NCBI GenBank assembly: GCA_016699975.1
Contig: CP064994.1
Location: 430,731-494,730 of the forward strand
Reading direction: 5' to 3'
DNA length: 64,000 nt
Source: Candidatus Moraniibacteriota bacterium
Lineage (GTDB): Bacteria; Patescibacteriota; Minisyncoccia; Moranbacterales; UBA1568
In this document: piece after piece, positions 1,773-62,053 of the stretch
Position numbering within the stretch: the stretch's first letter is position 1
Layout: each line of letters begins with the position of its first letter
Made by a program: the position numbers and the translations under genes
Notes under the pieces: model-generated
Told to the model about the DNA's origin: nothing
Databases searched by the model: none
What the model saw: the letters and a program-made list of their open reading frames with translations, nothing else

Positions 1773-2270
1773 ATGGATCATCGAAGTCAGAAAAAGCTTG
1801 TATTTGGGATCGCATACGCTCTTCTTTTTTTTGGAATCGCGTATCTTCTGTATCTTCCGTTTAAGCCACCTGTAACCTGTAGTGATGGTAAAAAGAATCA
1901 AAATGAAACTGGGGTCGACTGTGGCGGAGTATGCGCTGTCTGTATCGAAGAGCCAGTTCTTCAGGATATCCAGGTAACAGAAGCATCGTGGGTTGTGGGC
2001 GGAAAAGGAAATACGTACGATTTGGTTGCGAAGATGGAAAACCCCAACAACGACTATGGCGCTTCCCTCGTTCCTTATGAGTTTGTTGTGAAAGATGCGG
2101 GCGGCACAGTCATTTTCAAACAAAAAGGGGAGAGCTTTATTCTTCCCAGAGAAGAAAAGTATGTTATCGAGCCTACGCTCACGCTTTCGGGGAAGCCAGC
2201 CACAGTAGAATTTTCAACGGGGAGGCCCCTGGGGAAAGTTTTCCGGCTACAAAGAAAAACCGGCACTTGA
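1773..2270 (+). CDS. hypothetical membrane-anchored protein, N-terminal part; probably one gene with 2275..2604 split by a frameshift at T4 run 2239-2242
   Basis: N-terminal TM helix then Cys-rich segment and a beta-rich domain. Removing one T at 2239-2242 fuses this frame to the downstream ORF (reads ...GKVSGYKEKPALDVLNRRFRPSTSGVGF...). Confidence 0.5.
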   Translation: MDHRSQKKLVFGIAYALLFFGIAYLLYLPFKPPVTCSDGKKNQNETGVDCGGVCAVCIEEPVLQDIQVTEASWVVGGKGNTYDLVAKMENPNNDYGASLVPYEFVVKDAGGTVIFKQKGESFILPREEKYVIEPTLTLSGKPATVEFSTGRPLGKVFRLQRKTGT

Positions 2271-2274
2271 CGTC

Positions 2275-2604
2275 TTGAATCGTCGTTTTCGGCCGAGTAC
2301 GTCGGGAGTTGGCTTTGGAGTGGTGACGGGGCTTGTGGTAAATAACAGCCCGTTCGATTTCACGGAACTCGGTATTGTTGTCATTCTTCGAGATGAAAAT
2401 GGAAAAATTATTGCGACACAAAAGACAACACAGAATACGCTTCGCTCGGGAGAGGAGCGAGACTTTACTCTGCCCTGGCCTGATGCCTTTCCAGGAAAGG
2501 TAACGAAAGTAGAGGTGCAGACGGATGCGAATGTCTATCGAACGGAAACATTTATCCGTCAGTACCTTCCTACTCTGACGGAGAGATTTCAAAAACTTCG
2601 ATAA
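2275..2604 (+). CDS. C-terminal part of the same hypothetical protein (second copy of a similar beta-rich domain)
   Basis: Frame open back to 2209 and overlaps the upstream ORF by about 60 nt. Domain composition is similar to the upstream ORF. Confidence 0.45.
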   Translation: MNRRFRPSTSGVGFGVVTGLVVNNSPFDFTELGIVVILRDENGKIIATQKTTQNTLRSGEERDFTLPWPDAFPGKVTKVEVQTDANVYRTETFIRQYLPTLTERFQKLR

Positions 2605-2718
2605 TCGATTTGCGCGTGTCGTTTCTTGTGTTGTCTTCGGAGCACAAGAGACGATGAACAATTTTTTCGTACCCCGTTTTCACTTCACGACCCTTTCTTT
2701 CGCCGCCTCGAGATTCTC

Positions 2719-3663
2719 CCTATGATGCGACGGCTTTTTTACACCGACTGGATTCTTTTTTCAGCAGTGTACTTGGTGCTCGGTATCGGACTCCTTGCTC
2801 TTTTCAGCCTTTCGAAGGATTTGAATTTCTCAAGTGTTTTTGCACGGCAGTTTCTTTTTGCTGCTCTCGGATCGCTTCTTCTTTTTTCTTCGTCGGCGCT
2901 TGATTCCCGATATATTTCGAAATTGAGTACGCCGCTCTACTTTTTTACGATTGCTCTCTTGGTCGCCGTCCTCGTATTCGGGAGCGTTATTCGTGGTACG
3001 TCTGGTTGGATACAGATTGCCGGATTTCAGTTTCAGCCGGTAGAGTTTTCGAAAGTTGTGCTCATTGTTTTCCTGGCGAGCTTCATTTCGCAAAAACGAA
3101 GCGAACTGGGCTATCTCGTCAGATTGATTGTTTCACTTCTCCTCACTGCCTTTCTTGTGCTCTTGGTTCTTCGGCAGCCGGATTTCGGAAGTGCGCTTGT
3201 GCTTGCTGGTATTTGGTTTGGGATGGTAGTAGTTTCCGGTATACGGAAACGATATTTGGTACTTCTCCTCGTCCTCTTCGTGGCGCTTGCGGGAGCAGCA
3301 TGGTTTTTGTTTGCTCCCTACCAACGGGATCGCATCCTTACGTTCTTGAATCCAACACTCGATCCTCGGGGAAGCGGATACAATGTGATTCAATCGCTGG
3401 TTGCGGTCGGGTCCGGAGGTCTCACGGGGAAGGGACTGGGTCACGGATCACAATCACAATCGAATTTTTTGCCCGAGCGCCATACGGACTTTATCTTTGC
3501 AGTCATTGCGGAAGAGCTGGGATTTTTCGGAGTGAGTCTCCTCCTCTTCTTGTTCGGTGTAATCCTGTTTCGCATGAGCTCGATTGCTGCTTCAGCAAAA
3601 GATAATTTTAGCTACTTGGCGATCGTAGGCGTCATTCTTCTTTTTGCATTCAAATCACTGTGA
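2719..3663 (+). CDS. SEDS-family peptidoglycan glycosyltransferase (FtsW/RodA/SpoVE), N-terminal about 90%; interrupted by a 1-nt frameshift near 3651
   Basis: Multi-TM protein with SEDS motifs (GSGYNVIQSLVAVGSGGLTGKGLGHGSQSQSNFLPERHTDFIFAVIAEELGF). Start taken at MMRRLF; ORF extends to 2626. Confidence 0.8.
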   Translation, partial: PMMRRLFYTDWILFSAVYLVLGIGLLALFSLSKDLNFSSVFARQFLFAALGSLLLFSSSALDSRYISKLSTPLYFFTIALLVAVLVFGSVIRGTSGWIQIAGFQFQPVEFSKVVLIVFLASFISQKRSELGYLVRLIVSLLLTAFLVLLVLRQPDFGSALVLAGIWFGMVVVSGIRKRYLVLLLVLFVALAGAAWFLFAPYQRDRILTFLNPTLDPRGSGYNVIQSLVAVGSGGLTGKGLGHGSQSQSNFLPERHTDFIFAVIAEELGFFGVSLLLFLFGVILFRMSSIAASAKDNFSYLAIVGVILLFAFKSL

Positions 3664-3845
3664 ATGTGGGAATGAACGTGGGCCTTCTTCCGGTGACAGG
3701 CATTCCACTGCCGCTTGTGAGTTATGGAGGAAGCTCTCTACTCTCGACATTTTTGGCGCTTGCTTTGGTGCGTGTTCTCGCTTTTCAGAGGAAAACTCCT
3801 GACTCCTACGAATGGACCGGGGGATATGGACTGCCTTCTCCTTGA
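3660..3845 (+). CDS. SEDS protein C-terminal fragment (conserved NVGMNVGLLPVTGIPLPLVSYGGSSLL tail)
   Basis: Encodes the invariant SEDS C-terminus in the +1 frame. Restoring one C in gcattc|caaatc joins it to 2719..3663. Confidence 0.8.
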   Translation: MNVGMNVGLLPVTGIPLPLVSYGGSSLLSTFLALALVRVLAFQRKTPDSYEWTGGYGLPSP

Positions 3846-3894
3846 GAAAAATCATGAGAAAAAGACTCTTCGTTCAGACTAGGAAAAAATGTGT

Positions 3895-60532: not shown

Positions 60533-60915
60533 ACGATAGAAGCTTTTGTGGATTATTGTGTGGCAGTGGAGCAAAATTTGAGAGAAGAGAACGGAAAATT
60601 TTCTTGAAGATTTCCATCCATTATAGACTCTTTTTCGGAAAAGAAAACCAGAGGAGTGCGTATTGGAAAGATTTGGAAAGATCTCTCCCAAGAATTCTTT
60701 CCTCTTGAAGCGCATACAGAAAAATTGAGCATGTGACGGATTTTTCTGTACCAAAAAGAGAAGAGACTTTGATGTAAGGTGGAGGGGAGTCTTCACGGGA
60801 TGAATTTTTCTTAAACTCTAACTCTGAGGAAAGTGGACGAGGCCGAAATGGTGCTCTTCGTTTTCCGTCTATAGATTTTTAAAATTATTTTTTAAATCTT
60901 ATTTGGGGAAAAAGA

Positions 60916-60942
60916 AAACGACCTCTTATAGGCGGGTCGTTT
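60916..60942 (-). terminator. putative minus-strand rho-independent terminator just left of the IS630 insertion
   Basis: Reverse strand AAACGACC-11 nt-GGTCGTTT followed by TCTTTTTCCCC. Confidence 0.4.
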
Positions 60943-60967
60943 GTAGCTCCTGTCGGAGCGGCCTTTA

Positions 60968-60994
60968 CCTGCTATATCCCCCGCAAAACAAAAT
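60968..60994 (+). repeat. IS630 left terminal inverted repeat
   Basis: See mobile element; pairs with 62055..62096. Confidence 0.75.
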
Positions 60995-61017
60995 AGGGGA
61001 TCTGGTATATTGGATTC

Positions 61018-61332
61018 ATGCCCGCAAAAACAAAAACTGAACTCTCCCCCGAAGAGAAAGATTTGCTCAAAGCGTATCTCAAAACATCCCCGCTCATTCT
61101 CGTTCGCCTGAAATGCCATGCGATTCTTACGAGAGAAAAAGGAATGCCTCTGAAAGACATCGCCGATATTGTTTCGAGACACGAAAATACTATCGGTGTA
61201 TGGATGAAGAACTGGGAAAAACAACGCATGGCGAGTATCTTCACCGGACATGAGGGGAATCAGAACGCAAGTAAACTCACAGAAGAACAAAAAAGAAGAA
61301 ATCAGAGAAGCCCTCGAAAAACCACCAAGTGA
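61018..61332 (+). CDS. IS630-family transposase, N-terminal HTH part (ORF1)
   Basis: HTH region LSPEEKDLLKAYLKTSPLILVRLKCHAILTREKGMPLKDIADIVSRH. Joined to ORF2 by frame change at A6 run 61289-61294. Confidence 0.75.
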   Translation: MPAKTKTELSPEEKDLLKAYLKTSPLILVRLKCHAILTREKGMPLKDIADIVSRHENTIGVWMKNWEKQRMASIFTGHEGNQNASKLTEEQKRRNQRSPRKTTK

Positions 61333-62053
61333 ATACACTCTTCCAAAAACCTTTTGGGATGTCCCCGCCCTCAAAACATATGTTCAAGCGATATTTGGAG
61401 TCGTATTTGAACCCGTTCGTTCATATCACTTCCTCCTTTCTTTTTGCAATCTGAGTTTCAAGTATCCCGATACCTTCGATCTTCACCGGAATGAAACTCA
61501 TATTGTCGAAAGAATGGTTGAAATACAGACAGAAATCAGCCCCTTTCTCAAGGATGATTCGTGGGAAGTGTTTGCTTCCGATGAAGTGCGAATGGAATTG
61601 GAAGCTCTCACCAGAAAAGCGTGGCTCAAGAAAGGAGAACGGACGATCGTGCACGTGAATCGAAAGCGAGAAGCGCAAAGTTATCTCGGATTGCTCAATC
61701 AAAAAAACTTTCGATGCCATCTTTATGAAGTTCCCTGGCAAAACCAAGAAGAAATACTCAAAGCGTTGGAACAATTTCTGAAAGAGTATCCTGATAAAAA
61801 AATCTGTATCGTATGGGACAATGCGCGATTTCACAAGGGAAGGGAAATACGAAAAGCCCTCCGTAAAGGAGGACTTCTCGAGAGAGTGCATCTCATCAAC
61901 TTGCCGCCATATGCCCCCGATCATAATCCGATTGAGCATGTGTGGAATACGGCGAAAGGGATGATGGCAAACACCCAATATGAAAGTTTTGAAAAAATGA
62001 AGATGGTGTTTTTCACGTATGTGAATGGACGAGCGTTTGAGTATCGAATCTAA
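61250..62053 (+). CDS. IS630-family transposase, DDE catalytic part (ORF2)
   Basis: DDE_3 motifs: first two Asp upstream, WDNARFHK and PPYAPDHNPIEHVWN (D...E). Confidence 0.8.
   Translation: MRGIRTQVNSQKNKKEEIREALEKPPSEYTLPKTFWDVPALKTYVQAIFGVVFEPVRSYHFLLSFCNLSFKYPDTFDLHRNETHIVERMVEIQTEISPFLKDDSWEVFASDEVRMELEALTRKAWLKKGERTIVHVNRKREAQSYLGLLNQKNFRCHLYEVPWQNQEEILKALEQFLKEYPDKKICIVWDNARFHKGREIRKALRKGGLLERVHLINLPPYAPDHNPIEHVWNTAKGMMANTQYESFEKMKMVFFTYVNGRAFEYRI

Follow-up and report, generated by a model that had tools for sequence, protein, structure and literature searches.

Frameshifts along a 64-kb stretch of a Moranbacterales genome as probable residual Nanopore consensus errors

Homopolymer indels persist in consensus sequences derived from Nanopore reads and give rise to frameshifts; bins with a coverage below ~40x need to be polished with Illumina reads (PMC9262707). 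Two biological systems are also close enough to serve for comparison: the pseudogene-rich genomes of recently host-restricted bacteria, and insertion sequences (IS) of the IS1/IS3 type, in which programmed -1 ribosomal frameshifting or transcriptional slippage takes place at A6G motifs. These systems are compared here with the frameshifts present in a stretch of 64,000 nucleotides (nt) from Candidatus Moraniibacteriota bacterium (assembly GCA_016699975.1, contig CP064994.1, positions 430,731 to 494,730 of the forward strand), referred to below as the window. A first-pass annotation of the window, made from the sequence alone, listed at least seven frameshifts in six genes, placed all of them at short homopolymers, and proposed consensus errors in long-read data as their cause, with phase variation as a fallback. 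With a probability of approximately 0.93, the frameshifts are residual Nanopore consensus errors and not features of the organism. As such, they are an ordinary sequencing and assembly artefact without biological novelty.

The window resembles sequences affected by Nanopore (R9-generation) homopolymer errors in two respects. It contains run-concentrated indels of both signs, with open reading frames (ORFs) split throughout (PMC9262707), and its source combines low coverage with insufficient short-read polishing (PMC9262707; source methods in PMC8012365). The source record, CP064994, is a circular 1,048,819-bp metagenome-assembled genome (MAG), Hirt_18-Q3-R61-65_MAXAC.378_cln, classified as Patescibacteria, order Moranbacterales, family UBA1568, with a coverage of 10.93x for Nanopore and 5.38x for Illumina reads (Supplementary Data 3, Singleton et al. 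2021, PMC8012365). It originates from a Danish wastewater plant (Hirtshals sample). The Nanopore reads were assembled with CANU, and the assembly was then processed with Racon, twice with medaka, and finally with Racon using the Illumina reads (PMC8012365). Error-prone long reads and an inadequate polishing depth, both of which characterize a Nanopore error artefact, are found together in CP064994. The window can be equated with this record because GenBank proteins share its aberrant out-of-frame tails. QQS21316.1 (313 aa) is the truncated RodA of the window, with the identical tail ...LLFAFKSL, while QQS21359.1 (202 aa) and QQS21358.1 (307 aa, locus tag IPL87_02495) are the two halves of its GH5 protein, with the tail ...YVKRRCRAQC.

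Frame changes were checked by three-frame translation, and the lesions were fixed by base-level alignment to near-identical short-read contigs. These contigs, labelled L001-L013, L030, and L031, were retrieved through exact-protein look-ups of intact neighbouring genes. They come from Logan assemblies of SRR11674037, SRR12767646, SRR15021097, and SRR32934939, and from the ENA assemblies ERZ27239125, ERZ28614324, and ERZ15185987; their names follow MEGAHIT k141, SPAdes NODE, and Logan conventions. The contigs represent at least eight public assemblies other than that of the window. Their identity to the window is 99.5-100%, and of its 64,000 nt they jointly cover 52,863. All six genes named in the first-pass annotation are indeed frameshifted in the window, and the comparison with related sequences that it had called for finds each of them intact in near-identical contigs: the hypothetical protein with an FxLYD domain (277 aa), RodA (373 aa), the nucleotidyltransferase-like (NTase-like) protein (312 aa), the pilin-like protein (479 aa), GH5 (539 aa), and the IS630 transposase (344 aa). 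GroEL (551 aa), the PMT_2 glycosyltransferase (548 aa), TsaD, and ValRS are intact in the contigs as well. A homologue search with repaired RodA also led to an intact protein at 99% identity.

Two contigs indicate that the same strain is being compared. L005 is identical to the window over 2,340 nt, and L004 differs from it at one position in 6,130 nt, without a single substitution. Since this only difference is the frameshift indel in the NTase-like gene, it supports consensus error. Every lesion covered by at least two contigs shows the contigs in agreement with each other and in disagreement with the window, and ORF-restoring alleles are present in independent assemblies of the same strain (L001-L013, L030, L031), as a Nanopore artefact predicts. 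The opposite assignment, with the errors in the short-read assemblies and the window correct, is scarcely credible. Low-coverage contigs can err, an example being NODE_34929 at a coverage of 0.6, and L009 alone departs from the window, L012, and L013 at one site (60054-60058). However, different runs and assemblers concur at every multiply covered lesion, and the contig alleles restore full-length proteins that span their profiles, together with conserved motifs.

Outside the IS30-family element, 17 indel events separate the window from the contigs in the 52,863 nt compared, which corresponds to 0.32 per kb. Nine are deletions and eight are insertions, in line with the earlier remark that both kinds occur. 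When run length is taken from the longer allele, 13 of the 17 events lie in runs of at least 4 nt, which make up 9.75% of the covered bases (binomial P ~2e-9). Such an enrichment in mononucleotide runs is the pattern expected of Nanopore errors. The remaining four events, namely the lone T at 2231, the complex GGGCCC site in tsaD, and two indels in runs of 2-3 nt, show that the earlier assignment of all lesions to homopolymers holds for most of them but not for all. Because of these short-run and off-run events and the substitution responsible for the groEL stop codon, all of them unlike Nanopore homopolymer errors, the errors of the window are not purely homopolymer miscounts. Twelve events are coding and five are probably intergenic. 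This split is near the proportion of coding DNA, and the frameshifts consequently give no sign of counter-selection. Coding and non-coding DNA are affected alike, RodA, ValRS, TsaD, and GroEL included, and the absence of a selection signature is again what an error artefact would produce. The earlier count of at least seven is valid as a minimum but too low, as the 12 coding and five probably intergenic events in 52.9 kb are joined by a substitution that makes a nonsense codon in GroEL and by six or more frame changes in the IS30 transposase. The coordinates of all features are collected in Table 1.

Table 1. Lesions and mobile elements of the window. Where two alleles are given, the first is that of the short-read contigs and the second that of the window.
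Feature	Position	Strand	Description	Contigs
Hypothetical gene (FxLYD domain, 277 aa, 1773-2604)	2231..2237	+	two 1-nt deletions	L001, L002
Hypothetical gene, lesion 1	2231/2232	+	lone T lost from CTG[T]GGG	L001, L002
Hypothetical gene, lesion 2	2235-2237	+	A4>A3	L001, L002
rodA/ftsW (2722-3845)	3641..3645	+	T6>T5	L001, L002
IS30-family element, ~1,077 bp	3898..4974	-	imperfect terminal inverted repeats of ~35 bp	
Intergenic, secG / SBP_bac_5 gene	5279..5282	+	G5>G4	L030
Intergenic, upstream of pgi	7248-7250	+	A4>A3	L030, L031 (agree against window)
Intergenic, upstream of pgi	7266-7273	+	T6>T8, 2-nt insertion	L030, L031 (agree against window)
Intergenic, ychF / groEL	18828..18833	+	T5>T6	L011
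groEL (19293-20948)	19857..19859	+	in-frame TAA; G>T substitution, not an indel (GAA in contig)	L011
PMT_2 glycosyltransferase gene, codons 2-3	32956..32960	+	T6>T5	L003
NTase-like gene (38270-39207, 312 aa)	38587..38589	+	T4>T3	L003, L004
Pseudopilin-like gene (43139-44577, 479 aa, type IV pilus cluster)	43487..43491	+	C6>C5	L003
valS, C-terminus, ~32 codons before end	52260..52266	-	T6>T7 (+ strand)	L012 only
valS upstream site, most likely intergenic	55027..55034	-	T7>T8 (+ strand)	L012, L013
tsaD	55686..55703	-	compensating insertion and deletion (55686/55702) plus substitution	L012, L013 (agree against window)
GH5 cellulase-family gene	57228..57232	-	T4>T5 (+ strand)	L012, L013
GH5 gene, second lesion	57789..57791	-	G2>G3 (+ strand), beside unchanged A6	L012, L013
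IS630-family element, 1,100 bp	60975..62074	+	perfect terminal inverted repeats of ~22 bp, TA target duplication	
IS630 transposase lesion	61289..61294	+	A5>A6 insertion	L008

Bacteria of the Candidate Phyla Radiation (CPR) have reduced genomes and small, host-dependent populations, in which drift could fix deleterious mutations. The Hirtshals population of this CPR symbiont lineage might accordingly carry the frameshifts and the GroEL nonsense codon as genuine decay. The contigs stem from other runs, strain differences are possible, and substitutions of 0-0.5% relative to the window do exist; many genes per unit length are interrupted, as in the pseudogene-rich genomes of recently host-restricted bacteria. 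Nevertheless, genuine decay is very unlikely. It requires the simultaneous loss of RodA, GroEL, the TsaD motif, and the ValRS tail at 0-3 substitutions per kb, and in the case of L004 a single indel against no substitutions in 6.1 kb. The indels are strongly biased toward homopolymers and are not depleted in coding DNA, while the Illumina polishing depth of the source was only 5.4x. Lesions of genuine pseudogenes are shared or graded among relatives and accompanied by decay through substitutions. The relatives of the window at 99.5-100% identity are instead intact, essential genes are among those hit, substitution decay is absent, and intergenic runs show lesions at a comparable rate. The warning in the first-pass annotation that a pseudogene-rich reading of this contig would mislead is upheld, as every listed gene is unbroken in the independently assembled contigs of this strain.

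A further alternative is programmed recoding or phase variation, in which slipped-strand switching or ribosomal or transcriptional slippage would bridge the frames, for example at the CAAAAAAG stretch of the IS630 transposase. The A-run of this gene is located at the junction of the helix-turn-helix (HTH) and DDE regions, as in IS1/IS3-type frameshifting, and its A6 form resembles the slippery sequences of some IS families. However, L008 (SRR11674037) contains the same insertion at the same site with A5 and a continuous ORF of 344 aa, which makes recoding unnecessary, and the window copy would require a +1 shift instead of the -1 shift typical of A_AAA_AAG sites. Programmed IS frameshifting was rejected for this element, since the two-frame layout with a slippery motif that marks functional copies of that class is not seen in L008. 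The IS630 transposase is not a member of the programmed -1 frameshift class. Phase variation gains some plausibility from the pilin-like and GH5 products, which are surface or secreted proteins, the usual class encoded by contingency loci. At 2-8 nt, though, the tracts concerned fall short of typical contingency tracts; the lesions strike housekeeping genes and intergenic runs equally; and every short-read assembly shows the ON state. Slipped-strand phase variation, by comparison, involves long tracts in surface or restriction-modification genes only, with both the ON and the OFF length occurring among populations. Recoding and phase variation together are extremely improbable, and the fallback of the first-pass annotation is not supported.

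Consensus error, the cause proposed at the outset, is upheld by the low-coverage Nanopore source, the run bias, and the intact alleles in independent assemblies. It is further supported because selection would not tolerate lesions in RodA, GroEL, ValRS, and the TsaD YPGGP motif. In the mechanism proposed, Nanopore consensus calling miscounts bases within mononucleotide runs, and Illumina reads at ~5x were too few, leaving many of the miscounts uncorrected. What remains is ~0.3 indels per kb, in non-coding as well as coding DNA. These indels break genes, alter a conserved motif, or conceal a start codon, and occasional substitution errors add the GroEL nonsense codon. Reads from the source sample would be expected to support the intact alleles.

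Several observations weigh against this explanation or limit its reach. The comparison speaks strictly for near-identical populations with intact genes and not for the Hirtshals reads. That the SRA runs are Illumina data is suggested by the naming and size of the contigs. Three lesions are covered by a single contig each: 52260 (ValRS C-terminus), 19857 (GroEL), and 18828 (intergenic). Over positions 1-63343, the two kinds of indel are unevenly distributed, deletions lying mostly below 44 kb (eight of nine) and insertions mostly above 52 kb (six of eight), which may be due to chance or to polishing being carried out in windows. The frame changes of the IS30 element are candidate errors, as this copy may be a repeat that escaped polishing or one that has truly decayed.

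The practical consequences concern the use of such records. Although CP064994 carries the label of a closed CPR genome of high quality, a 64-kb sample of it contains ~1 indel per 3 kb. The nr database already includes truncated products with aberrant C-terminal tails, namely RodA at 313 aa and both halves of GH5. Pseudogene counts, inferences of gene loss or metabolic gaps, and protein lengths taken from CP064994 and similar low-coverage MAGs could mislead; a conclusion that RodA or GroEL is non-functional would be one such false inference. In addition, checks based on ORF splitting cannot detect some of the errors, such as the lost start at 32956 and the compensated rewriting of TsaD YPGGP.

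For the genes on the earlier list, three of the seven sites had been placed exactly: 43487 (C5), 57228 (T5), and 61289 (A6). The other four were off by 1-15 nt. In the hypothetical gene, the T4 at 2239-2242 had been held responsible, but this run is unchanged in the alignment to L001 and L002, so that both the run and the direction of the change were wrong; the two contigs read CCCCTGTGGGAAAAGTTTT where the window reads CCCCTGGGGAAAGTTTT. The C reported missing from the RodA gene near 3651 is in fact a T lost ~10 nt away. Likewise, the T6 at 38571-38576 in the NTase-like gene is unchanged, and the deletion lies ~15 nt from it. The second GH5 lesion had been assigned to the T6 at 57791-57796, which is the run adjacent to the G-run actually altered.

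The expectation that ±1 repair would yield family-typical protein from the flanking frames is confirmed for RodA, GH5, and the IS630 transposase. For RodA, which the lesion cuts to 313 aa in the window, repair produces one Pfam stretch that extends over residues 13-357 (profile positions 5-354/356). Repaired GH5 matches PF00150. The first of its two lesions divides the protein into the 202-aa and 307-aa fragments, and the second parts the signal peptide from the catalytic domain, the intact protein reading ...GATNPFFHRSGQSIV. The assignment of the NTase-like protein rests only on a weak Polbeta match (E 0.031).

The IS630 transposase matches NF033545 with 194.7 bits, and its repaired form contains DDE_3 and HTH domains. 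L009 (SRR32934939) has a precise empty site for the element. Being present in L008 and absent from L009, IS630 is polymorphic and recently mobile in this CPR population.

In a six-frame translation of the window, six or more frame changes interrupt the IS30 transposase, and the density of these changes is ~20x the indel density of the rest. Once reconstructed, the transposase matches NF033563 across the full profile with 214 bits; its relatives in other CPR genomes are encoded in one frame and are 53-70% identical. L001 lacks the element and has a precise empty site, while the contigs of SRR11674037 are interrupted at both of its ends (L002 stops at 3886 and L030 begins at 4946). Because of the empty site and the breaks at both ends, IS30 looks recently mobile and repeated. 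In this copy, errors would be dense because repeats offer short reads no unique placement. A scan of contigs with the reconstructed transposase yielded no copy from the source genome and no near-identical copy, only relatives at 46-70% identity, and exact-pattern scans of Joint Genome Institute (JGI) metagenomes for IS30 gave no match.

Among the lesions that the earlier list lacked, the groEL stop codon takes the place of the conserved Glu in the VVEGMxFDRGY motif and divides the window protein into 188 and 361 aa. The L011 protein forms one Pfam stretch (profile 1-487/490). Two G>T differences in groEL, at 19857 and 20051, both fall inside the 8-mer GTGGAAGG (19854-19861 and 20049-20056). 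According to the short-read contigs, this 8-mer occurs four times in the covered region, and the window differs at two of the four, which may be sequence-specific or modification-related Nanopore miscalls; the observation is post hoc and comprises very few cases. It is unlikely that a minority of the lesions is biologically informative, with the GTGGAAGG miscalls arising from a DNA modification motif and IS30 being genuinely decayed.

The native start codon of the PMT_2 glycosyltransferase gene (ATG at 32953) is out of frame in the window, while the L003 gene starts with MFFRTDLV. As a TTG further upstream maintains an ORF of 606 aa, the lesion does not show. In valS, the insertion near the 3' end replaces the C-terminal tail, and the Val_tRNA-synt_C match is shortened to profile positions 1-52/66, compared with 1-65/66 in L012. 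The T-run upstream of valS was also considered as an N-terminal frameshift of ValRS but is more likely intergenic, as the conserved domain begins just after the Met at 54940; the gene caller nevertheless stretches the window ValRS to 949 aa over this site. In tsaD, the conserved motif GLPYPGGP becomes GLPTQAGP in the window, and the Pfam TsaD score is 261.7 bits, compared with 270.3 bits for the short-read version. Exact-protein look-ups found no match for RNase J and UvrA (first-start ORFs, probably with a wrong start), NADAR, two GenBank fragments (P0121 and P0130), and TsaD, in the last case because the motif is corrupted in the window.

A MazG-like ORF of 62 aa (48052-48330, minus strand) has an N-terminal part (IEFKDLLRFIIVEDERL...) that apparently lies in another frame, near an A5 at ~48256. 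Pfam matches the downstream part only, and L003 ends at 48243. The sequence thus makes this ORF a candidate for a further frameshift near 48250.

Substitutions relative to the contigs occur in tight groups of 3-4 per 40-100 nt (31039-31138, 31972-32020, 33434-33473, and 50678-52404). These groups look like genuine strain-level variation or recombination tracts and not random error. Two substitutions in secG (5128 and 5148) were found relative to L030 and are probably the same pair as relative to L001; one of them changes Ser to Cys, and they could be strain single-nucleotide polymorphisms or substitution errors. At 60054-60058, the last codons of a gene of the 3-demethylubiquinone-9 3-methyltransferase family (Pfam PF06983), the run is T4 in L009 (SRR32934939) but T5 in the window, L012, and L013. 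This site is not a window error, and the T4 is a real strain variant or an error of the short-read contig.

The window has a G+C content of ~48% and contains typical CPR housekeeping genes along with the type IV pilus cluster. The 530-nt spacer upstream of groEL (18762-19292) contains no groES-like ORF and no ORF longer than 66 aa. As the short-read contig L011 likewise has no gene call there, the missing groES-like ORF is not an assembly error. At its beginning, the window opens in a 23S-5S rRNA operon. Insertions in rRNA genes have been reported for CPR bacteria. The 3' part of the 23S rRNA gene (1-920) comprises 920 nt for 833 model positions, and the 5S match (1032-1174) comprises 143 nt compared with a 120-nt model; these lengths suggest insertions in both rRNA genes.

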